A stretch of DNA of 64,000 nt from Candidatus Gastranaerophilales bacterium (GCA_944322665.1 CALUPM010000001.1:7201-71200); one strand, 5' to 3'; positions 3,937 through 62,189 are shown, counted from the first letter of the stretch. Program-made: numbers and translations. Notes: generated from the letters alone by a model not told the origin.

Positions 3937-3967
3937 GAAATTTGATAAAACTTATATACTTTATATA
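3937..3967 (+). promoter_or_regulatory. shared motif copy: GAAAT-N18-TTTATATA (drives the candidate sRNA)
   Basis: GAAAT at 3937-3941 and TTTATATA at 3960-3967. A back-to-back TTTATATA box on the minus strand at 3903-3910 faces gene 3519..3797. Confidence 0.5.
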
Positions 3968-5696: not shown

Positions 5697-5752
5697 TCTA
5701 ATGTTATCATAAAAAAAAATCTTGTTGTAGTAAAGATGAGGAATTGAGATTT

Positions 5753-7024
5753 ATGAAAAACTTTTTAGCAACATTGACGGCATTATGCTTAACAGCATTC
5801 ATGGTCGTTCCGGCTTTCGCTTCCTCTAAAATTAATGACGTGAGCGACGGCTACTGGGCTCAGAAAGAAATCCTTGATGTGGTTTCAAACGACATCATGA
5901 ATCTTGATGAGAACAACAATTTTAATCCTGAAAAGGATGTTCCGAGAATCTGCTTTGTTAAGTCACTTTTGAAATTGTTATCAAATGACAATTTGAATGT
6001 TTCTATTTCAAATTCATTCTCGGATGTTGCTGCTGACGACAAAAATTATGATGATATTTTGCGTTCTCAGCAGTTAGGCCTTGTTTACGGCTATCCGGAC
6101 GGGACATTCAAGGCTTCAAAACTTATGACAAGAGCTGAAACACAGTCTGTAATCAGCCACATCACTCAGGACAAAGTCTCTGACACTTCTGCCCTTGCGT
6201 CTTTCTCTGATGCAAACAAAATTCCCTGCTGGGCAAAACAGGTTTACGCAAAAACTCTTGACTACGGTATTTACGTAAACTATCCGAACGAAAATGAACT
6301 TCGTCCGAATGACAACCTGACCAGAGCTGAAGCTGCTGTTCTTCTTTCAAGACTTAAGGCAAAGCTCGCTCTTGTTAAGAGAGAATACAAAGGTGAAGCT
6401 GTTGAACACTTGAAAGTTAAAAGAAATGCTCCGAACAACGAAGTTTATGTCCTTGAAAATTCTAACGTAATCAAAGAAGGTAACGTTCTTGAAGTTGCTT
6501 TCACTGACAAGTTCAGATCAGAAGAAGCTTCTGCAGGTCAGGCTGTTTACTTCGTAAACGAGGAGCCTATCTACACTGAAGAAGGAACTCTTATTGTTCC
6601 GGCAAATTCAAAATTCAACGGTTCTGTTGTAGCTATTGAAAACGAAAAATGGTTCAACAAAAATGCAAGAGTTTACGTTCAGTTGACAGAAATCGTTACT
6701 CCGGACGGCAAAACAACTTCTTTAAATGCTAAACCTTTCTACAAAAATTACGCATTAAAAGAAGGTCCGTGGATGACTGCAGGTAAATTGTTGCTCTATA
6801 CAGCAGGCGGTGCGGCTATCGGTACCGGTGCAGGTGTCGGCTTTGCATTCATTCCTGACCCTGTTAAAGTAGGTACAGGTGTTGCTATCGGTACTCCTGT
6901 AGGTGCGGGTGTCGGCCTTGTAACAGGTCTTGTAACTAAGGGGCTTAAATACCATGCAAAATCAGGTGAAGAAATTTATATAATTCTTCTTGATGATGCT
7001 GCTGTTGCAAAACAAGCTTTATAA
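5753..7024 (+). CDS. SLH-domain envelope protein with C-terminal glycine-zipper segment
   Basis: Signal peptide (VVPAFA/SSK). Three SLH-like repeats (SDGYWAQKEI..., FSDVAADDKNYDDI...YGYPDGTFKA, FSDANKIPCWAKQ...RPNDNLTRAEAAVLL). C-terminal AGGAAIGTGAGVGFAFIP...GTPVGAGVGLVTGLV. ATG 5753 sits behind GAGGAA; the track starts at TTG 5744. Confidence 0.85.
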   Translation: MKNFLATLTALCLTAFMVVPAFASSKINDVSDGYWAQKEILDVVSNDIMNLDENNNFNPEKDVPRICFVKSLLKLLSNDNLNVSISNSFSDVAADDKNYDDILRSQQLGLVYGYPDGTFKASKLMTRAETQSVISHITQDKVSDTSALASFSDANKIPCWAKQVYAKTLDYGIYVNYPNENELRPNDNLTRAEAAVLLSRLKAKLALVKREYKGEAVEHLKVKRNAPNNEVYVLENSNVIKEGNVLEVAFTDKFRSEEASAGQAVYFVNEEPIYTEEGTLIVPANSKFNGSVVAIENEKWFNKNARVYVQLTEIVTPDGKTTSLNAKPFYKNYALKEGPWMTAGKLLLYTAGGAAIGTGAGVGFAFIPDPVKVGTGVAIGTPVGAGVGLVTGLVTKGLKYHAKSGEEIYIILLDDAAVAKQAL

Positions 7025-7211: not shown

Positions 7212-7508
7212 ATGAAAAGATTATTTATGATGATGGCTCTGTTCGGACTCTTTTTAATTCCGGCACAAAGCGCAAATGCTTGGTCTGTCAGCCAGTTGAA
7301 CCCGCTTCCTTACATCGGAATAGGGCACAATTCAAGCTCATTCAGTCTGAATCCGTTCACAGGGTTCAAAAACTGTAATCCGTGTAAAGTTAAAAAATCT
7401 GACTGCGACCCGTGCAGGGCAAGAATGGTAGTAAATCCCTGCGACAGATGCGTTAAAGCCTTTCCTGAAGCTCCGTGCCCGTGTCAGAGAATAATTTATG
7501 ATTATTAA
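7212..7508 (+). CDS. small secreted Cys-rich protein (98 aa)
   Basis: Signal peptide ending AQSANA. The mature C-terminal half has 10 Cys in (N/D)PC, DRC and APCPC motifs. AAGGAG RBS. Confidence 0.65.
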   Translation: MKRLFMMMALFGLFLIPAQSANAWSVSQLNPLPYIGIGHNSSSFSLNPFTGFKNCNPCKVKKSDCDPCRARMVVNPCDRCVKAFPEAPCPCQRIIYDY

Positions 7509-7579: not shown

Positions 7580-8416
7580 TTAATAAACAATTTCTTCAAG
7601 TGTTTTGAAAATTTTATCAGTAATCTGCCTGATATATTCCTGACTGACCATACCGTTTATGACAGCGTCTGATATCTGGTATGCAGGGCGGATGTACTCC
7701 TGAGCGGTTTTGTTTACGTCAGCAAACTGTAAATCAGCGGCTTTTCCGGTTTTGCCTCTGAGGGCTGCGCGTTTGTACCAGCGTTCTTTAATCACGTCAA
7801 GCGGGGTGAAAACGTAAACTTTTACGTCCATAATTTCTCTTAAACCTTCATTCAAAACGTACAAACCTTCCGTCAAAATGACTTTTGCCGGTTTTTTGAG
7901 TTCTCCGTCCGGATTGCTCACGCAGGTTACGAAATCATATAAGGGGGATTTAATTTCCTTTCCGCGTTTTAAATCCAGAAGGTGTTTTTTCATTAACTTG
8001 AGATTTATGGCTTCCGGAGTATCAAAGCTGAAGCCTGTTTTAAACAGCTCTTCATAACTTCCTGCTTCAAGAAGTTCTTTTGAAGTATCTTTATAATAGT
8101 CATCACAGCGGATTACCGTATATATTCCTTCTTTTTTCTCTTTAACGCAGGCTTTAATGGTGTTGTCTACGAAAACGGTTTTGCCGGAAGCACTTTCGCC
8201 GGTAATTCCTATCAAAAATGTTTTCTTCTTTTCCTGAACAACCATACGCGCAATATTCAGTATAAGATTGTCCGATGTCTTTAAAAACAGCGGCTGGGGC
8301 CGGGTTTTGTCTTCTTCAAGAATTTTTTTTAATGCTTCGACAATTGTCGAAATCATTTCCATATCGCGTCTTGATGAATAATAATCATAACTTGTCAGCT
8401 GAAAGTCCGTTTTCAT
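7580..8416 (-). CDS. uridine kinase / phosphoribulokinase-family P-loop kinase
   Basis: Walker A in LIGITGESASGKTVFVDN. Collinear with the PRK/URK family. About 60 aa of extra N-terminus. Confidence 0.75.
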   Translation of the reverse strand: MKTDFQLTSYDYYSSRRDMEMISTIVEALKKILEEDKTRPQPLFLKTSDNLILNIARMVVQEKKKTFLIGITGESASGKTVFVDNTIKACVKEKKEGIYTVIRCDDYYKDTSKELLEAGSYEELFKTGFSFDTPEAINLKLMKKHLLDLKRGKEIKSPLYDFVTCVSNPDGELKKPAKVILTEGLYVLNEGLREIMDVKVYVFTPLDVIKERWYKRAALRGKTGKAADLQFADVNKTAQEYIRPAYQISDAVINGMVSQEYIRQITDKIFKTLEEIVY

Positions 8417-8576
8417 ATTTCCTTTAACCCTTTAAAAATCTTATTTTAATATTGTACTTTAAACCATTTTTAATTTCCGCTAATAATAAATTTTGTAACA
8501 AAAATATTTAAAAATTTAAAGAAACGGGCAAAATATCCGTAAAGGATTTATGTAGAGATAATTGGAGTATGTAAAT

Positions 8577-8750
8577 ATGTACAAGGACGAAATTTTTGAA
8601 AATGCACTACGTGAAAAAAGAGAGCAGAATTACACACAGCTGAAAACCGAAATTTCATCAATGGAATTGGCCATTGAAAAGTTTTTGAACAGTGTACTTG
8701 AATGTACAGCTTCTGTATCGGAAAGAGATTTTCATGTCACGACACTATAG
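8577..8750 (+). CDS. hypothetical small protein (57 aa)
   Basis: ATG 8577 lies 9 nt after GGAG; the track uses TTG 8562. The 3' end lies inside a 12-bp perfect hairpin terminator. Confidence 0.4.
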   Translation: MYKDEIFENALREKREQNYTQLKTEISSMELAIEKFLNSVLECTASVSERDFHVTTL

Positions 8751-8773
8751 TTTTAAACTATAGTGTCGTTTTG
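8739..8773 (+). terminator. 12-bp perfect hairpin ACGACACTATAG/CTATAGTGTCGT plus TTTT
   Basis: Direct reading. Lies between convergent genes. Confidence 0.7.
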
Positions 8774-8776
8774 ACT

Positions 8777-10567
8777 TTATGCATACATTCCGCTGTTGAA
8801 CGGCATCATAAACGGGTTGTTAAAACTCATCGGGTTGTAGAATATCCCGCTCATACCTCCTGTAGCCGGATTTTTTAAAGATTGAAGCATATTAAGAATA
8901 TAATCAAGTTTTGCGATTGTGTTTTGGTATTTTTCGCTGTTGCCGGTTTCTGTTTTATCATCATTTTTATCTTCTGATTTCTTATCAGGATTGTCAGCAG
9001 GTTTTGTTTCGGAAGGTTTTTCTGCTGCTTGAGGATTTTGTGCTGCTCCTGATGTTTGAGAGGCTGCCTGTTGTGCGGAATATTGTGTCTGTGCATGAGT
9101 AGTTTCATCTGAAGAAGGAGTTCCTTCAGGCTTTGTAAGTTCTCTTGACTGTGAAGCTGTGCCGAGATCCCCTTGTTGATATGCTGTTACAACATTTTTG
9201 TAAGCTTTTTTAATGTCTTTGTTTTCTGCAGGATCCTGTTCGTATCTTGCTCTAGCAGTCCGGAGAACTTCTTCCAGTACCTCATCATTCTGTTGTGCCT
9301 GCAGCGCCAGTTGTTCCGCCGGTTTGTTTGTAGTCCTGTCCTGAAGCTGGTCAAGTTCTGATTTACCGACAACTTTTTTCATAGCTTTACCGGCAAGCCA
9401 GCTTGTCAGCAAACCAACGCCAAGACCTACAACAGCTCCGATTGCAGTTCCTACACCCGGTGCAACAGAACCTAACGCTGCACCTTTAGCTGCCCATGCT
9501 GCAGCTACTGCTGCAGTGCCGACTTTGGCTCCTATTGCGTAAGCCGCAACCTGAGCACCTGCTGTTGCAACAACACGTCCTGTCTGCTTAAGTGCCATTT
9601 CTGTACCTTTGCCTTCTCCTGGTTTTACAGGGTTGCCGTTTTCGTCGACCTGATCAAAGGTTTGTTTTGTTGCAATAATTTCCGGAACAGCGAGCGCAAG
9701 ATCTAAACTTACTGCTGTCAAAGCATTTGACCTTCCGAATTTTGCAATGGTTCTTAACTTAGAAGATTTGGTAAGTGCGGTATTAACGACTTCTTTACCT
9801 TTATTGTAGCCTGTTGCTTTTTTTACTCCGTTCCATACTTTTCCGCTTTTAGAAACCGGCTTCAAACTGCCTTTTGTTTTTTCAATATGAACTTTTTGAT
9901 TAGCGTCTGCAATTGCTTTGTCAATTTCTTTCATCTTATCGGCATAATCTTTGCCTTTAAGAGTTTTAGCTTCTCCGATTAGATGTCTTACATTATCATA
10001 GTATTTTGATTGATTAAACTGATTTAAGGCTTTTTTTGCATTATTAATCTGTTTTGCAAGTTTTTTGTCTGTAAGTTCAGTTAAAAATTTTTTTGCTTCT
10101 TGTTTGCTCATCCCTTGCGATTTCATAAAATCTGCAAGTGCCTGCTGCAATTCTCTGCCTTTTTGCATTTTAGCAGTGCCTGTAAGTTTTTTGTATTCTT
10201 TTGCGAGATTTCTTATATTTTCTGCCTTCTGGAGTTTTTGCAACTCCTGAGCCGGATTGCCTGTCATCGGACGGAATCTTCTTTCAAGCTCCTGTATTTC
10301 AAGATTGCGCTGAAAATTTGTGTATGATTCTCTAAAATTTGCGCCTTTCAAACTCTGCTCTGTGGCTTTTATATTATTCCATGTTCCTTTCGGGTCTTTC
10401 ATGTCCTGAAATATTGAAGGGGCTGTTCTTGCAGCTTTTTCAATCGCAATTGTTGCCGGAATAGTGCCGGGAGTAATAATAGAAATTTCTTCTTCTTCCG
10501 GTGTAAGACCCATTGCATAACGTGTTAATAATTTTACATCACTGTTTACTTTGATGCTGTCACTCAT
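8777..10567 (-). CDS. hypothetical 596-aa protein: coiled-coil, glycine-zipper membrane core, low-complexity N/M/P/G/F tail
   Basis: Long ORF with its own promoter motif (10603-10633). Core: GRVVATAGAQVAAYAIGAKVGTAAVAAAWAAKGAALGSVAPGVGTAIGAVVGLGVGLLTSWLAGKAM. Tail: NPATGGMSGIFYNPMSFNNPFMMPFNSGMYA. Paralogous to the next gene. Confidence 0.8.
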   Translation of the reverse strand: MSDSIKVNSDVKLLTRYAMGLTPEEEEISIITPGTIPATIAIEKAARTAPSIFQDMKDPKGTWNNIKATEQSLKGANFRESYTNFQRNLEIQELERRFRPMTGNPAQELQKLQKAENIRNLAKEYKKLTGTAKMQKGRELQQALADFMKSQGMSKQEAKKFLTELTDKKLAKQINNAKKALNQFNQSKYYDNVRHLIGEAKTLKGKDYADKMKEIDKAIADANQKVHIEKTKGSLKPVSKSGKVWNGVKKATGYNKGKEVVNTALTKSSKLRTIAKFGRSNALTAVSLDLALAVPEIIATKQTFDQVDENGNPVKPGEGKGTEMALKQTGRVVATAGAQVAAYAIGAKVGTAAVAAAWAAKGAALGSVAPGVGTAIGAVVGLGVGLLTSWLAGKAMKKVVGKSELDQLQDRTTNKPAEQLALQAQQNDEVLEEVLRTARARYEQDPAENKDIKKAYKNVVTAYQQGDLGTASQSRELTKPEGTPSSDETTHAQTQYSAQQAASQTSGAAQNPQAAEKPSETKPADNPDKKSEDKNDDKTETGNSEKYQNTIAKLDYILNMLQSLKNPATGGMSGIFYNPMSFNNPFMMPFNSGMYA

Positions 10568-10602
10568 AACTTTTCCTCTAAGATTTTTCCCCTGTTTATA
10601 TT

Positions 10603-10633
10603 TATATAAAGTGTTTTGTTTAAGAAAAATTGC
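10603..10633 (-). promoter_or_regulatory. shared motif copy: GCAAT-N18-TTTATATA upstream of 8777..10567
   Basis: Read on the minus strand. The box ends 35 nt before the ATG. Confidence 0.55.
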
Positions 10634-10646
10634 TTTAAAACGTGAA

Positions 10647-10685
10647 AAAGTACTAAGTTTTGTTAAGAACTTAGTACTTTCATCC
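10647..10685 (-). terminator. 13-bp-arm perfect hairpin separating the two Gly-zipper paralogues
   Basis: AAAGTACTAAGTT-N8-AACTTAGTACTTT, followed by a T-run on the minus strand. Confidence 0.7.
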
Positions 10686-10714
10686 CTAGGGTTGCAGGGG
10701 ATTTGGAGTTAAAC

Positions 10715-11551
10715 CTACATAAGGGTATTGAAATTACCGTAAGGGTTCGTGATATTGCCGCCTGTTAAATTCATATTGTTATTCTGTCCCGAAGCCTGCA
10801 TATAAGCCTGCTGGAGTTTTTGAAATTCTTCGTCATTTGCAAAACTGCCTCCGCCGTACGGGATTGTTGATGTATCTATTGTGAACGGGTTGTTTGAGCC
10901 TCCTGCAGCGGCTTGTTCTGTGGCTTTCTTTTCTGTGTATGATTTTCCTACGATGAATCTGCCAAGAAAATCACCTGCAACAAAGCCTACCATACCGCCT
11001 AAGAACGGAATTGGAATTATTGCCTGTGTAATTGCGCCCAGAAGCGTGCTGATACCCAGCCTTACGCCTGTTTTGGCAGTTTCTCCGGCTCCGGTCAGAA
11101 CCCCTTCATTTGCAGTTGCTTTTATTATGTTCGGCAGTTCAAACGCAAGAGTAAGTGCAGCTCCTATAAGCGGCATTCTTTTACCTAGAACTTTCCCGAC
11201 ACTTCCGAGTCTTGCCAGAAATTTTGATTTATTTGCGGTTTTTGCGGTTTCGCCGGCAGCTTTCCAGCCGTCTCTTAAATCAGGCCAGATGCTTGTGATA
11301 CTCTTTTTAGTTGCTTGCCAGAAGGAGCCGTTGTTTTCACTCAGCAGTTGTTGATGGGCTGTTGCTGCAGCTGTATTCCCCGCTTTAAATGCACCGGTAA
11401 ACCTGTCTTTAAATTTAAGAGCTTTGCCGGCTTCCCAACTTTTCCGGAACCCTTCGGAGTATGTATCAAATCCTGTTCCGAAAACAACGTAAGGATACAT
11501 TTTTGTGTATTTCCAAGCTGTACCTAAAGCACTATCTACAGTCACAGTCAT
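10715..11551 (-). CDS. hypothetical 278-aa paralogue of 8777..10567 (glycine-zipper core, N/G/P-rich tail)
   Basis: Shares LAFELPNIIKAT / LALAVPEIIAT and FLGRFIVGKS / LAGKAMKKVVGKS with its neighbour. Start moved to ATG 11551 (MTVTVDSAL, AGGT RBS) because the shared promoter motif (11585-11615) lies inside the longer track ORF. Confidence 0.75.
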   Translation of the reverse strand: MTVTVDSALGTAWKYTKMYPYVVFGTGFDTYSEGFRKSWEAGKALKFKDRFTGAFKAGNTAAATAHQQLLSENNGSFWQATKKSITSIWPDLRDGWKAAGETAKTANKSKFLARLGSVGKVLGKRMPLIGAALTLAFELPNIIKATANEGVLTGAGETAKTGVRLGISTLLGAITQAIIPIPFLGGMVGFVAGDFLGRFIVGKSYTEKKATEQAAAGGSNNPFTIDTSTIPYGGGSFANDEEFQKLQQAYMQASGQNNNMNLTGGNITNPYGNFNTLM

Positions 11552-11584
11552 TTTAAACCTACCTGTTTTAAACCTAACCTTACT

Positions 11585-11615
11585 TATATAAAATATTTTG
11601 CCTGATGAAAATTGC
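11585..11615 (-). promoter_or_regulatory. shared motif copy: GCAAT-N18-TTTATATA upstream of 10715..11551
   Basis: The box ends 33 nt before ATG 11551. It shares the extended ATGCGCAAT with the 24160-24190 copy. Confidence 0.55.
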
Positions 11616-11659
11616 GCATTCAAAAGTTTTTGTTACGAAATGTTACAAAGCCTGCGATA

Positions 11660-11688
11660 TTTACAAACAGGCATAAGCGCTGTATAAT
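11660..11688 (+). promoter_or_regulatory. sigma70-type promoter TTTACA-N17-TATAAT ending 6 nt before ATG 11695 (leaderless prediction)
   Basis: Direct reading. Confidence 0.45.
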
Positions 11689-15214: not shown

Positions 15215-17500
15215 ATGAACGAATTTCCTTTTGAACTGGATGACTTTCAAAAAGAAGCCTGTAATTTTATAGATGATGGCAAAAGTGTGGTAGTCTGCGC
15301 GCCGACAGGTGCCGGAAAAACCGTAATAGCCGAACACGCAATTCATAGAGCACTTGAAAACGGCGCAAGAGTTTTTTACACAACCCCTCTGAAAGCGCTT
15401 TCAAATCAAAAGTTTTATGATTTTGCCGGAAAATTCGGTCAGGATAATGTCGGGCTTTTGACCGGAGATACTTCAATCAATCGTAATGCACAGATTGTCG
15501 TTATGACAACGGAAGTTTTCAGAAATATGCTCTATGGCACAAACTTCGGTGCAGTTGCGGATAATATGAAGGATGTAAGGTATGTTGTGCTTGATGAAGT
15601 TCATTATATGAACGACGAGCAGCGCGGAACTGTCTGGGAAGAAAGTATAATTTACTGCCCGACGAATGTCCAGATTATAGCGCTTTCGGCAACCGTTGCA
15701 AACGCGGATGAACTTACAGACTGGATAAATACAGTTCACTCTAAAACAGAGCTTGTAAATACGGATTTTCGTCCTGTGCCTTTGAAATTCTACTATTTTG
15801 ACAGTTCACAGCCGGATAAACTTCTTCCGCTTTTGACGCCTTCGGGTGCTCTTAATAACCGGATTAAACCTGAGCGCAGGAAGTTTGCGCACGGAAAATT
15901 GAAGCAAAAGTCTTATGTAAAAGAAGTTGTGAGAAATCTTCAGGAAAAAGATATGCTTCCCGCTATCTATTTCACATTTTCACGGCGAAAATGCGACGAA
16001 CAAATGGAAAAATGCGCGGGATTAGAGCTTGTAACGCCTTCAGAGCGTGCACAAATCCGGCAGTTTATTGATGATTACATTGCGGAAAATCCGTACCTTT
16101 ATAACAACAAGCATATTGAATATCTTCTCTGCGGAGTTGCCTCGCACCACGCAGGGCTTCTTCCGTCGTGGAAACTTCTGGTTGAAAAACTTTTCCAGAA
16201 AGGGCTTATAAAAGTTGTTTTTGCAACGGAAACTCTAGCCGCAGGTATAAATATGCCCGCACGTTCTACAGTCATAAGCTCTACAAGCAAACGCACGGAC
16301 AGCGGCCACCGTATGCTGACAGCCAGCGAATTTTTACAGATGTCAGGGCGCGCCGGCCGACGTGGAATGGATGAAGTCGGATACGTTACAATTGTCGGAA
16401 CTCCTTTCCAGTCACCGGAAGAAGTGGCAGAACTGGTTTTGAGTGATGCTAATCCTCTTGAAAGCCGTTTTTCGCCGAGCTATTCTATGGTCTTGAACCT
16501 CCTTCAGCGCTTCAGCCTCGATGAAGCTAAAGAATTAATACTCAAAAGTTTCGGGTATTTTTCAACAGGCACAAGGCTTCATCCTATTTTAAAACAAATA
16601 GAAATGAACAATCGTGAAATTGCTGAAAGAACTTTTGCCTGTCCTTACAAATATTCAGATGGAAATTTAATCGAATACGACAAAATCCGCAATATTTATG
16701 TCCAGAATCGCCAGACCTACAAAAAAATCTGCAAGCAGGAAAAAGCCAAAAATCGGCCGCTTTCTCCCGAAGCCGTTCAATTCGGGCGCGAAACTAAAGC
16801 AATGCTTGCCAAAATGCACGAATTCCACTGTGATATCTGCAAGCTTTACAAAAAACATTCTAAAAACATTGAAGTTATTGAACGTTTGAATATAAAACAG
16901 AAAAAACTTGAAAAAGAGGTTGAAAAACAGCGTGACATTTTCTGGAACAAGTTTCTGGCACACAGAAGTGTGCTGATTGATTTCGGATATCTTGAAAATG
17001 ATTATCCGACGCCTAAAGGAATTACAACGTCGCAAATCCGCTCTGAAAATGAACTTTATATAGCCGAAATTATATTTTCCGGCATTTTGGAAAATCTGAC
17101 CCCTTCTCAATTATCAGCAGTAATTTGCGCAGTTGTGACAGAAGATTTGAGAATTGAAATCCCTTATATTCCGTTCTCAGAGCCTGTCAGAAAAACACTT
17201 AATCTCATACGCAACATCCGCCGCAAAATTGAAAAAGTTCAAAATAACCGTGATGTAGATGCTCCTTTGTACATAAATCCTTATTTCTCATCTCTTATTG
17301 AACTCTGGGTTGAAGGAGCGGAATGGGAGTCAATCTGCGGACAGATTGATATCGGCGAAGGCGATATTGTAAGAGCTTTCAAGCGTGTAGTCGATGTTTT
17401 AAGGCAATTCACTACAATAGAAAATGTCCCTGAGGCACTTGTTTTTACTGCCAGAGAGGCTATCGACAAAATTCAAAGAGAACCTGTTGATCTTGATTAA
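15215..17500 (+). CDS. Ski2/HelY-like DEVH-box superfamily II RNA helicase
   Basis: APTGAGKT, DEVH, SAT, QMSGRAGRRG motifs. The C-terminal region resembles a DSHCT domain. Confidence 0.88.
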   Translation: MNEFPFELDDFQKEACNFIDDGKSVVVCAPTGAGKTVIAEHAIHRALENGARVFYTTPLKALSNQKFYDFAGKFGQDNVGLLTGDTSINRNAQIVVMTTEVFRNMLYGTNFGAVADNMKDVRYVVLDEVHYMNDEQRGTVWEESIIYCPTNVQIIALSATVANADELTDWINTVHSKTELVNTDFRPVPLKFYYFDSSQPDKLLPLLTPSGALNNRIKPERRKFAHGKLKQKSYVKEVVRNLQEKDMLPAIYFTFSRRKCDEQMEKCAGLELVTPSERAQIRQFIDDYIAENPYLYNNKHIEYLLCGVASHHAGLLPSWKLLVEKLFQKGLIKVVFATETLAAGINMPARSTVISSTSKRTDSGHRMLTASEFLQMSGRAGRRGMDEVGYVTIVGTPFQSPEEVAELVLSDANPLESRFSPSYSMVLNLLQRFSLDEAKELILKSFGYFSTGTRLHPILKQIEMNNREIAERTFACPYKYSDGNLIEYDKIRNIYVQNRQTYKKICKQEKAKNRPLSPEAVQFGRETKAMLAKMHEFHCDICKLYKKHSKNIEVIERLNIKQKKLEKEVEKQRDIFWNKFLAHRSVLIDFGYLENDYPTPKGITTSQIRSENELYIAEIIFSGILENLTPSQLSAVICAVVTEDLRIEIPYIPFSEPVRKTLNLIRNIRRKIEKVQNNRDVDAPLYINPYFSSLIELWVEGAEWESICGQIDIGEGDIVRAFKRVVDVLRQFTTIENVPEALVFTAREAIDKIQREPVDLD

Positions 17501-22297: not shown

Positions 22298-23179
22298 TTA
22301 TGCTTGTTCATTTTCTTCAGGTCTCTTTATTTCAACGTCATATTCTTCCATTTTATTTAACAGAGCATCAAGGCTTGATGAAGTAAGAGTTACAGTTTTT
22401 GTTGTCGGCTCCGCATCTGAACCTTCAGCTGCGGGTACGGTTGTTTCAATTTCAACGCTTAATTCACCACCCGAAGTAATCGAAATGTTATTTGCCATTG
22501 CGGTTGCGCGTTCATTATCTACTTCTTGCTGAATTTCCTGTTTTTTGGCTCTTATATCTTCCTTGCTGTTAGATTTAATTTGAATGTCCTTACCGTTCAG
22601 ATCTTTAACTGTCGTGCTGTAAGTTCCATCAGAATTTACAGTAATACCTTCTTTTGCAAGTTCAAGTTTTTCTGATTCAAGCTTACGCTGCTGAACTTCT
22701 CTGACTTTTTCACTTTGTACGGCAGCTCTTGTTCCTTGTGTTTCAACAGACGCTTCCGGGTTAGTTTCGGGATTAGTTTCCGGCTGTTCTGTACCGCCGG
22801 CTCCGTCGGTTTTTTTCTGTGCTATAGCTCCAGCAAGGGCTCCTAATGTATTGAAAATCGTGCCAACCGTAGCTGCTGTAGTGCCGGCTCCGCCTCCGTA
22901 GCAGTCGCCGTATAATCCTCCCATAGGGTACATACCCATACCACCCATCATCATTGGATTGTACATGCCCATCATGCCGCCCATCATCATTGGATTGTAC
23001 ATGCCCATCATGCCGCCCATCATCATTTGAGAATATATGCTTGCGTCCATACCCATTCCCATCGTGCCAAAATTATTTATGTTAGTTTTTTCGGCATGAA
23101 TGTTGACATTAGGCGAACTGTCTAAATTCAATCTTCCTGTTGGTACTGTGTAATGATTTCGACCTATCATCCAAGACAT
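22298..23179 (-). CDS. hypothetical protein: NINNFG motif, Met/Gly-rich repeats, TM-like segment, acidic linker, C-terminal domain
   Basis: NIHAEKTNINNFG, then MMMGGMMGMYNPMMMGGMMGMYNPMMMGGMGMYPMGG, then TVGTIFNTLGALAGAIA. AAGGAG RBS. Lies 37 nt downstream of its paralogue. Confidence 0.75.
   Translation of the reverse strand: MSWMIGRNHYTVPTGRLNLDSSPNVNIHAEKTNINNFGTMGMGMDASIYSQMMMGGMMGMYNPMMMGGMMGMYNPMMMGGMGMYPMGGLYGDCYGGGAGTTAATVGTIFNTLGALAGAIAQKKTDGAGGTEQPETNPETNPEASVETQGTRAAVQSEKVREVQQRKLESEKLELAKEGITVNSDGTYSTTVKDLNGKDIQIKSNSKEDIRAKKQEIQQEVDNERATAMANNISITSGGELSVEIETTVPAAEGSDAEPTTKTVTLTSSSLDALLNKMEEYDVEIKRPEENEQA
22945..23030. repeat. perfect 36-bp tandem duplication (2 full copies plus 14 nt) inside the Met/Gly-rich coding region
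   Basis: CCATCATCATTGGATTGTACATGCCCATCATGCCGC at 22945-22980 and 22981-23016 are identical. A third copy begins at 23017. The unit encodes GGMMGMYNPMMM. Confidence 0.9.
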
Positions 23180-23216: not shown

Positions 23217-24131
23217 TTATTTACTTTCTTCGCTTTTTCTGCGCTCGATTTCTTTTTTTGCTGCATCTATTGCTTCTTTTTCAGAATCATATACAGCGGT
23301 TCCGACGCGTTCGCGGTCGATTGTCGGATACCATTTACCGTCAACCTGTTTTGCGGAATACGAATATGTTGAAATATTTGCAAGAGTGTACTCTGCTTTA
23401 GGAGGAACATCTTCCGATTTAACGCTGGTATCGCATTTATATGTTTTACCATCCGGTGTTGTAACTTCAAGCGGGAGTTTTATTGTTCCTGTGGGTAATG
23501 CTTTACCTTTAAATATTTCGGCACAAATAGCATCTACTTCAGCGCGTGTCAGCGGTTGTCCATCCTCTGTTTTGTATTTTGCAGCAACAATATCAAAACC
23601 GGTGTGTCCTCTATACTTATTTGTACCTTTGATTTTCTCAGCCTTAACTGTAAATTCATCGTACTGCTGTTCAGAAGGAAGCCGTTCCGCACTAGCTACA
23701 GGAGCTGTAGAATTATCCGGTTTCTCTGTTTCATCAGGTTTTACTGTTTGAGTTACAGGATTTGTGTCAGCCGGCTCTTCTGTTACTTTAACATCATCCG
23801 AAACTTCCGGTCTTGTAACCTGAGTTTGCGGTTTTACGGTTGTCTGATCTGCTGTTACTTCTTCAGTACCGCCGCCTTTGCCTCCTTTACTGCCCATGAA
23901 AGCTGTTACAAAGGTAGTCGCCAAACCAAGCACACCTGTTATGCCGAGCCCCCATTTTGCTCCTTTTGAGAGTCCCGGATCACAATACACGTAATTGTAA
24001 GGCATCGACCAAATACTGCCAAAATTGTTAATATTTGTTTCTTTGTGGTAAATATTAATGCTTCCTTGTGGTCTGCGCCATGAATGCAAACCAACTCTAA
24101 GCGGTTGTGGTCCGTATGGAGGATCGCCCAT
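23217..24131 (-). CDS. hypothetical protein, paralogue of 22298..23179 in the N-terminal module (NINNFG motif, TM-like segment, Gly-rich stretch, T/P/E linker, C-terminal domain)
   Basis: NIYHKETNINNFG, WGLGITGVLGLATTFVTAFMG, SKGGKGGGTE. AAGGAG RBS. Shared promoter motif at 24160-24190. Confidence 0.75.
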   Translation of the reverse strand: MGDPPYGPQPLRVGLHSWRRPQGSINIYHKETNINNFGSIWSMPYNYVYCDPGLSKGAKWGLGITGVLGLATTFVTAFMGSKGGKGGGTEEVTADQTTVKPQTQVTRPEVSDDVKVTEEPADTNPVTQTVKPDETEKPDNSTAPVASAERLPSEQQYDEFTVKAEKIKGTNKYRGHTGFDIVAAKYKTEDGQPLTRAEVDAICAEIFKGKALPTGTIKLPLEVTTPDGKTYKCDTSVKSEDVPPKAEYTLANISTYSYSAKQVDGKWYPTIDRERVGTAVYDSEKEAIDAAKKEIERRKSEESK

Positions 24132-24159: not shown

Positions 24160-24190
24160 TATATAAAGTATATAACTGTTTATATATTGC
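24160..24190 (-). promoter_or_regulatory. shared motif copy: GCAAT-N18-TTTATATA upstream of 23217..24131
   Basis: The box ends 28 nt before the ATG. TATACTTTATATATAT is identical to the 3952-3967 copy. Confidence 0.55.
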
Positions 24191-52347: not shown

Positions 52348-52378
52348 TATATAAAGTATATTTTTATATGAAAATTGA
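52348..52378 (-). promoter_or_regulatory. shared motif copy: TCAAT-N18-TTTATATA upstream of 51796..52317
   Basis: The box ends 30 nt before the ATG. CAATTTTCAT is shared with the 11585-11615 copy. Confidence 0.5.
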
Positions 52379-62158: not shown

Positions 62159-62189
62159 GAAATTAATAAGATTTAAAATTTTTTATATA
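62159..62189 (+). promoter_or_regulatory. shared motif copy: GAAAT-N18-TTTATATA upstream of 62219..62581
   Basis: The box ends 29 nt before the ATG. Confidence 0.5.

Follow-up and report, generated by a model that had tools for sequence, protein, structure and literature searches.

Phage tape-measure proteins are long helical proteins of several hundred to about 2,000 amino acids (aa), the length of which scales with that of the tail, and their genes lie after those of the tail assembly chaperones and before those of the distal tail or baseplate. They also have a role in membrane passage. Glycine zippers, sequence patterns that permit tight helix–helix packing, are present in channel-forming and membrane-translocating segments. 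Zippers of this kind are common to a cellular protein and to tape-measure proteins and bring about membrane permeabilisation and translocation (PMC10240207). Here we describe a tandem gene pair on the minus strand of a 64,000-nucleotide stretch of Candidatus Gastranaerophilales bacterium (GCA_944322665.1 CALUPM010000001.1:7201-71200; the whole stretch is called the window below). Judged from sequence, the pair appears to encode unannotated, family-restricted, tape-measure-like helical proteins with conserved low-complexity tails and a promoter class of their own.

Both open reading frames (ORFs) for which a first-pass annotation of the window had reported proteins of 596 and 278 aa were found, and we refer to the products as P0001 (large paralogue) and P0002 (small paralogue). 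Two family alignments underlie much of what follows: A1 holds 38 homologues of the small gene (of 128 matches) and A2 holds 23 homologues of the large gene (of 61). The parts of the two genes are as follows.

8777-10567, minus strand: P0001, large paralogue, 596 aa, stop codon included (ORF and translation, 61 homologues).
9863-10567, minus strand: P0001 N-terminal extension, aa 1-235, Lys-rich and helical (AlphaFold2 (AF2) secondary structure, composition).
9353-9862, minus strand: P0001 homologous core, aa 236-405 (hhalign register, invariant Gly/Ala/Pro columns in A2, hydropathy).
8933-9163, minus strand: P0001 disordered linker, T/A/S/Q/E/K/P-rich, aa 469-545 (predicted local distance difference test score (pLDDT) below 50, composition).
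8780-8932, minus strand: P0001 tail, aa 546-596 (alignment A2, tail statistics).
10715-11551, minus strand: P0002, small paralogue, 278 aa, stop codon included (ORF and translation, 128 homologues).
10937-11221, minus strand: P0002 conserved core, aa 111-205 (invariant A1 columns, hydropathy, 72-88% identity in closest relatives).
10718-10936, minus strand: P0002 tail, aa 206-278 (alignment A1, tail statistics).

A longer, TTG-started version of the small gene (302 aa, 10715-11623, minus strand) contains the ATG at 11551, which is the likely start because the promoter motif (see below) falls within the TTG extension and homologues mostly measure 265-300 aa; a purine-rich AGGTAGG lies just upstream of this ATG. 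At 50% identity and E<=1e-3, the small-gene family comprises 491 clusters. GC content is about 0.39 and flat over the whole 64-kb window, and the region therefore bears no compositional sign of foreign origin.

The first-pass annotation had proposed that the two proteins share a central module, and it had left the significance of their pairwise alignment to be checked. Compared directly by BLASTP, P0001 and P0002 align only marginally (E 0.003, 27% identity over 124 aa), with SKLRTIAKFG..LALAVPEII in register with SKFLARLGSVG..LAFELPNII. Profile–profile comparison of A2 with A1 by hhalign gives a probability of 94.1% and E 1.2e-7 over 155 columns, pairing residues 208-415 of P0001 with residues 56-215 of P0002. 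This stretch spans the ELPNII/VPEII helix, the Gly/Ala-zipper and the VGKS(Y/E) motif, with ..LAGKAMKKVVGKSE opposite ..FLGRFIVGKSY. For synteny and cross-comparison with profile hidden Markov models (HMMs), 80 loci were taken from species-representative genomes, and the second, downstream gene of these orthologous loci is itself often recognised by the small-family HMM (1e-50 to 1e-72). The two families are bridged by intermediates because several proteins match both HMMs, such as the second genes of locus L038 (A1 7e-52, A2 5e-14) and locus L016 (A1 4e-10, A2 5e-56). P0001 and P0002 are thus true paralogues, their homology being settled by the cross-HMM matches. Exactly two tandem copies are present in 75 of 86 loci, a few loci having one, three or four, and searches with both HMMs and filters off detected no further paralogue in the source genome. 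A tree of the core domain requires 2-4 label changes, and motif-based extraction had dropped most second-gene sequences from it; such a tree would be compatible with a single ancient duplication and with other histories.

The core of P0002 consists of a helix MPLIGAALTLAFELPNII, a loop with invariant G150, G154, E157 and K160, and a Gly-zipper hairpin ending in IVGKSY, while that of P0001 runs from ..LALAVPEII.. over a 30-aa insert to an Ala/Gly-zipper that extends up to VVGKSE. Hydrophobic segments cover residues 125-146 and 161-202 of P0002 and residues 280-301 and 332-396 of P0001, the first being a marginal helix with conserved E, P and N and the second a Gly-zipper hairpin of 35-40 residues. 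Within them lies a small-xxx-small pattern of glycines that are invariant in A1 (G185, G189, G193, G202) and in A2 (G371, G373, G377, G381, G385), and a Gly/Pro pattern is invariant in both alignments. The N-terminal parts carry a net charge of +11 over 125 residues (P0002) and +24 over 283 residues (P0001), the tails one of -2 and -5, respectively. The AF2 model of P0002 is all-helical, with 11 helices, a pLDDT of 69 and a predicted template-modelling score (pTM) of 0.55; its helices at 126-149, 151-178 and 182-201 coincide with the hydropathy segments. P0001 is likewise modelled as helical, with low confidence (pLDDT 55) and too poorly for a structure search. A membrane or envelope role of the pair, as predicted from three moderately hydrophobic helices, the Gly pattern and the basic N-terminal parts, is plausible.

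Neither protein has a match in Pfam or NCBIfam, and a PDB sequence search with both family profiles returned nothing below E 0.1. A Foldseek search with the AF2 model of the small protein, as the first-pass annotation had suggested, did not point to a family either: there was no PDB match with E below 1 and the best BFVD match had E 0.11, a few tape measures being among the insignificant BFVD matches. YtxH and gas-vesicle models of Pfam and NCBIfam matched none of the 61 members scanned, and one homologue is labelled "gas vesicle protein" by its source. Tape-measure models of Pfam and NCBIfam went unmatched. The PHROG database gave a different picture. Among the 38 members of A1, 32 match phrog_1047 ("tail associated lysin", best 4.3e-11) and 14 match phrog_167 ("tail length tape measure protein", best 1.2e-9), and the further tape-measure PHROGs 794, 934 and 4200 were matched as well. 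On the protein side these matches cover about 180-220 residues, and on the long profiles they consistently fall away from both ends (about 710-937 of 1251 and 541-750 of 1555). As helical sequences rich in Gly, Ala and Lys are prone to compositional artefacts, the best-matching members were reversed, locally shuffled or fully shuffled to serve as controls: nine of ten had no match, and one reversed sequence had two (E 0.018 and 0.036). Searched in reverse against the whole genome, the phrog_1047 profile had only two matches, P0002 (E 0.0125) and P0001 (E 0.23), over profile positions 745-937. When a tape-measure-like member of the family was searched by tblastn against 50,697 phage records, none matched, nor did the family alignment detect any relative among viral contigs. 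We conclude that the family core and the central hydrophobic module of tape-measure-type tail proteins are probably remotely related. The proposal that the pair are tape measures proper is ruled out by their non-phage context and their length. That no family could be recognised, as first stated, thus holds for curated families and gives way to tape-measure or tail-lysin profile similarity in most small-family members. Such a remote hit had been named as an outcome that might explain the whole architecture; it accounts for the core, and leaves the tails, the size, the non-phage context and the duplication unaccounted for.

The likeness to phage tape measures therefore consists of order-specific profile similarity over amphipathic helices and the Gly-zipper hairpin, with clean controls, and both kinds of protein are all-helical and lack a signal peptide. 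However, the proteins of the pair measure 278 and 596 aa (227-330 aa for first-gene proteins across the family) where those of phages measure about 700-1900 aa, they are encoded at a fixed chromosomal locus without a tail-gene module nearby, and they come as two paralogous copies with their own promoters and low-complexity NP[FYM] tails. Glycine-zipper membrane proteins (PF13488 Gly-zipper_Omp, PF13441 Gly-zipper_YMGG, the PdsO N-terminal part, ssl2009 and C19orf12-like proteins) share the GxxxG/AxxxG stretch in a hydrophobic hairpin, but have no counterpart to the ELPNII helix, the N-terminal helices, the GKSY motif or the tails. Matches to these families are weak and confined to the zipper (PdsO 5.6e-7, ssl2009 4e-4, others 1e-3 to 0.04); no Gly-zipper Pfam model exceeds its curated threshold for P0001 or P0002, and sub-threshold matches occur in 2 of 38 and 5 of 23 relatives. 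The translocators of type III secretion systems (SseC/SseD, YopB/YopD, IpaB/IpaC) are also signal-peptide-less helical proteins with hydrophobic hairpins encoded by adjacent genes, a resemblance that is architectural only; matches are marginal and limited to single members (SseC 0.048, SseD 0.0016). No chaperone-like or injectisome gene was seen among the called genes of the conserved block (see below) or in Pfam scans of the neighbours. The N-terminal domain of Tde1, a type VI secretion system (T6SS) effector of Agrobacterium, is a cellular, membrane-acting glycine zipper that resembles tape measures (PMC10240207). We liken it to the pair by description only: Tde1 is a T6SS-delivered toxin with a DNase domain, whereas the pair has no enzymatic domain and no T6SS context.

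Further sequences with such profile similarity occur elsewhere in the assembly. A 455-aa helical protein at C39:13332-14003(+), behind the promoter motif discussed below, matches the N-terminal part of phrog_167 (5e-9), and ORFs of 640-1200 aa on contigs C33, C68, C72, C51 and C82 match other parts of this profile. These ORFs may be either prophage tape measures or further tape-measure-like cellular proteins.

The phyletic profile that had been proposed as a check was run on 301 sampled genomes of the class. Of the 98 sampled genomes of the GTDB family Gastranaerophilaceae, 85 have a match to the small-family profile; outside this family, weak partial matches were seen in 4 of 202 genomes. All named loci come from metagenome-assembled genomes (MAGs) of Gastranaerophilales or Melainabacteria, save a few obviously mis-binned contigs. 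In most of the approximately 80 loci, the pair belongs to a block of six genes in the order small gene, second gene, a 57-62-aa gene (opposite strand), a PRK-family kinase, a Cys-rich protein of about 98 aa and an SLH protein, the last two again on the opposite strand, and the flanks beyond the block vary between genera. No phage gene was found in the conserved block. The pair's fellow members lie here at the following positions.

8562-8750, plus strand: small conserved gene, 62 aa here and 57 aa in most relatives, always following the pair (synteny).
7580-8416, minus strand: PRK / uridine-kinase family gene (Pfam PF00485, E 6.6e-27; synteny; 79-99% identity across the family).
7212-7508, plus strand: Cys-rich secreted 98-aa protein (synteny; signal-peptide-like N-terminus by reading).
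5744-7024, plus strand: SLH protein with a TrbI-like beta domain and a C-terminal glycine zipper (Pfam SLH E 1.7e-22, TrbI E 5e-4; synteny).

The 62-aa gene has no family match, and the PRK protein is extended by about 65 aa at its N-terminus. The neighbours in the window also include genes for isocitrate/isopropylmalate dehydrogenase and seryl-tRNA synthetase. The non-SLH C-terminal part of the SLH protein occurs in 297 of the 301 genomes, usually in 2-6 copies per genome, and is an envelope module of the whole class for which no curated family reaches threshold. Because this domain is class-wide, its co-occurrence with the pair is uninformative on a functional link.

Sequence comparison with the species of locus L009 gives an amino-acid identity of 99% for the PRK protein and 91% for the SLH protein, against 60% for the small and 68% for the large paralogue. 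With a nonsynonymous divergence (dN) of 0.22-0.27, compared to 0.015-0.03 for PRK and 0.05 for SLH, the pair has a rate of evolution about 10 times that of its neighbours in the block. Crude values of omega, the ratio of dN to synonymous divergence (dS), are around 0.1-0.25 for the pair and 0.02-0.07 for the neighbours, and they are rough given that dS is saturated even for the closest species. Since this saturation affects all genes, the divergence reflects old species splits rather than allele swaps. Omega is below 1 and the pair is under purifying selection; the dN/dS comparison gave no sign of allele replacement or positive selection. Within both proteins, identity among the closest relatives is highest in the core (72-88%) and lowest in the linker and the tails. 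The PRK protein is itself extremely constrained (99% identity and a dN of 0.015 at saturated synonymous sites). Given the presence in 85 of 98 genomes, the fixed block, the lack of relatives in viral contigs or phages and the purifying selection, the two are cellular core genes, single-locus and vertically inherited, rather than mobile ones.

Despite this fast sequence drift, Asn/Met/Pro/Phe/Tyr tails are a conserved trait of both paralogues. The tail of P0002 begins with NNPF.., followed by a short helix EEFQKLQQAYMQ and then ..ITNPYGNFNTLM, while that of P0001 consists of an amphipathic helix IAKLDYILNMLQSL and an N/M/P/F/Y-rich end ..FYNPMSFNNPFMMPFNSGMYA. Statistics on the last 45 residues of 79 first-gene and 41 second-gene proteins bear out the low-complexity tails with NP[FYM] units first noticed on the two proteins of the window. 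Tails contain 14% N, 8-9% M, 7-8% P, 6-8% Y and 5-7% F, compared to 4-5% N, 2% M and 2-3% P in the bodies, and NP[FYMLI]/[FYM]NP units number 2.4-3.4 per 100 aa in tails versus at most 0.02 in bodies (at least 100 times denser). Segments of similar composition are also found at the N-termini of two distant second-gene relatives (P0181 and P0182).

Composition and the AF2 model agree with the earlier observation that the large copy carries additional helical and linker segments relative to the small one. A Lys-rich coiled coil of about 280 aa had been proposed; the region is indeed Lys-rich and helical (residues 61-283, 17% K, helical in the AF2 model), but the heptad signal is weak and the coiled coil is not borne out. 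The P0001 linker reaches only 27-39% identity even among the closest relatives, and second genes of other genera lack the N-terminal extension or have it replaced. Some second genes (L002:9093-10448, and those of L034, L059 and L084) have short repeats of the form YTEEEI..L...G(L/I)TDEE..(Q)..GY between core and tail, with a SHOCT-like look from sequence reading alone.

The motif GCAAT-N18-TTTATATA lies 33 and 35 nucleotides (nt) ahead of the ATGs of P0002 and P0001, respectively, and a hairpin separates the two genes.

11585-11615, minus strand: P0002 promoter motif GCAATTTTCATCAGGCAAAATATTTTATATA (motif scan).
10603-10633, minus strand: P0001 promoter motif GCAATTTTTCTTAAACAAAACACTTTATATA (motif scan).
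10647-10680, minus strand: intrinsic-terminator-like hairpin between the genes, with 13-nt perfect arms (10647-10659 / 10668-10680) and an 8-nt loop.
3937-3967(+), 10603-10633(-), 11585-11615(-), 17032-17062(+), 24160-24190(-), 52348-52378(-), 62159-62189(+): sites of the promoter class in the window.

These seven matches in the window compare with 0.86 expected, and there are 37 genome-wide. In loose form, the motif precedes the first gene at 58 of 81 orthologous loci and the second gene at 36 of 72, and it is conserved even at loci whose proteins share only about 33% identity with those of the window. The observation that each gene has its own copy of a shared promoter motif is thus extended to orthologous loci. 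The perfect 13-bp-arm hairpin was also recovered; it has a U-rich 3' flank on the coding strand (UUUUUCACGUUUU) and a free energy of -21.8 kcal/mol (z -3.7), and at 67 of 69 orthologous loci the folding energy of the intergenic region is below -10 kcal/mol. The best reading, given separate promoter motifs and a terminator-like hairpin that are conserved in orthologous loci, is that the genes form two separate transcription units. A further, palindromic hairpin with 14 pairs (8739-8769) is placed where the 3' ends of P0001 and the 62-aa gene converge; it overlaps the final codons of the 62-aa gene and has a T-run on the plus strand only.

More broadly defined as GMAAT-N17-19-TTTATATA, the promoter class is mostly found 15-55 nt ahead of the starts of proteins that are for the most part orphans and is unlike the TTTACA-N17-TATAAT type at 11660-11688; the genome holds eight matches to the sigma-70 family. 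Around 30 proteins behind it, by inspection without N-terminal signal peptide, include calpain-like, EF-hand and repeat proteins. A Pfam search on ten proteins behind the same motif gave mostly no match and none that is flagellar. N/M/P/F/Y-rich segments are enriched among motif-driven genes (odds ratio 4.3, p 0.0016, on a crude ORF set). Within the window, the site at 24160-24190 precedes an operon-like pair of NINNFG-motif proteins (22298-23179 and 23217-24131, both minus strand), of which the downstream one carries MMMGGMMGMYNP repeats that are compositionally like the tails of the paralogues. Two other motif-driven proteins, C26:23376 (172 aa) and C38:9972 (221 aa), have by inspection the look of an outer-membrane beta-barrel (alternating pattern, C-terminal ..GFRF), and they have no signal peptide and no Pfam match.

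What might these proteins do? As a tentative best explanation, we propose that both paralogues form a resident, hetero-oligomeric glycine-zipper membrane complex with disordered tails for interaction. Both would be signal-peptide-less helical proteins of the cytoplasmic membrane that assemble with each other, each held in the membrane by a marginally hydrophobic helix (..MPLIG..ELPNII.. / ..LALAVPEII..) together with a helical hairpin that contains the glycine zipper and ends in (V/I)VGKS(Y/E). Their basic, amphipathic N-terminal helices would lie at the cytoplasmic face, the N-termini being placed there because of the positive-inside rule and their strong basic charge, and the tail could be outside (three passes) or inside (hairpin only), both of which would be compatible with the evidence. 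A flexible linker may present the Asn/Met/Pro/Phe/Tyr tail with its NP[FYM] units as a partner-binding module, and the glycine-zipper faces may drive oligomerisation into a scaffold or pore-like helix bundle. The hydrophobic module of phage tape measures, which looks homologous, has been proposed to act in this way. Membrane insertion, topology, hetero-oligomerisation and an envelope role of the pair are what we infer here.

Several points weigh against this proposal. AF2 confidence is moderate for the small protein (69) and poor for the large one (55), and Foldseek yields nothing significant in PDB or BFVD. The proteins of the window are themselves poor representatives of the tape-measure likeness: P0002 has no PHROG match below 0.01, P0001 matches only an unnamed PHROG (5.5e-7, residues 340-466), and the reverse phrog_1047 search is weak for both genes (E 0.0125 and 0.23). 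Hydrophobicity is moderate, with 19-residue Kyte-Doolittle maxima of only 1.3-1.8, and the conserved residues E138, N141 and D195 lie inside the hydrophobic helices, which could instead pack in a soluble bundle. That the SLH gene shares a block with the pair may stem from infrequent rearrangement and not from function, given that the SLH C-terminal domain is class-wide and the pair family-restricted. Finally, that the two proteins would assemble with each other is pure inference.

It is precisely the modest hydrophobicity and the conserved charges inside the supposed membrane helices that invite an unlikely alternative, namely that the proteins are soluble or peripheral helical bundles whose Gly/Ala helices pack inside, as those of tape measures do within the tail tube, and whose tails build a meshwork or condensate in the cytoplasm or close to the membrane. 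The AF2 model is a helical bundle (pTM 0.55), and a meshwork would suit both the N/M/P/F/Y-rich segments that are somewhat enriched behind the promoter motif and the similar N-terminal segments of P0181 and P0182. However, an uncharged Gly-zipper hairpin of 35-40 residues with basic flanks is a typical membrane hairpin, and several family members match Gly-zipper membrane families.

Less likely still is that the pair are exported pore-formers akin to a secretion translocon, which would be co-expressed with signal-peptide-less effector-like proteins of the same promoter class and leave the cell without a Sec signal, perhaps via a reduced flagellar-type apparatus. They would then enter the membrane of a target, in the manner of the two hydrophobic translocators of type III systems or of an ejected tape measure. 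The tandem arrangement of two hydrophobic helical proteins without signal peptides and with a tape-measure-like module would fit this idea, as would their fast evolution relative to the neighbours and a promoter class that precedes about 30 mostly orphan proteins without signal peptide on inspection. In addition, the genome encodes FlhA, FliF, two Flg_bb_rod hits and two extra ORFs with only the FHIPEP C-domain, with few rod or hook matches and no Flagellin_N match (C24:14343-16331, C24:19336-19845, C12:2109-2556, C88:658-1692 and C1:73933-75021, the last 2.7 kb past the window end). This set may be an export apparatus without a filament or reflect a gap in the MAG. It agrees with Soo et al. 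2014 (PMC4040986), who report incomplete sets of flagellar genes for many Gastranaerophilales. The idea suffers from the fact that the SseC and SseD matches, which would favor it, are single and marginal, that the locus offers no chaperone, needle or secretin context, and that the promoter class is unlinked to any secretion gene. The basic N-terminal regions suit a cytoplasmic location, the incomplete MAG (96.6%, 102 contigs) could hide flagellar genes, and no result points to export. We consider it improbable to a further degree that Gastranaerophilaceae have an undescribed regulon for export or host interaction with the pair as its membrane-inserting, translocon-like component. According to this joint claim, the promoter class would drive about 30 mostly orphan proteins without evident signal peptide, low-complexity ones included, which a reduced flagellar-type apparatus lacking a recognisable filament would export, and the pair would form the conduit in the outer membrane or that of a target.

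Very improbable, in spite of the tape-measure profile similarity, the fast sequence evolution and the 1-4 tandem copies that vary in some genomes, is a domesticated tape-measure fragment acting as a decoy against phage genome injection (superinfection exclusion or defence), as near-universal, single-locus, vertically inherited core genes are unlike patchy defence genes, no defence or phage genes adjoin the pair (no PADLOC search was made), close phage relatives are lacking and omega is well below 1. Explanations other than the resident membrane complex and these three rivals take the remaining probability.

Gastranaerophilaceae are common gut relatives of cyanobacteria. The members met here are uncultured or metagenome-assembled only, and lineage-specific conserved genes are among the few handles on the cell biology of this family. 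The pair described here is such a case, present in almost every genome of the family, separately promoted, fast-evolving and set within a promoter class that marks orphan proteins. A tape-measure hydrophobic module that apparently exists as a stand-alone, vertically inherited cellular protein bears on the origin of this module, and the pair offers a small, tractable protein with which to test how the module acts in membranes.

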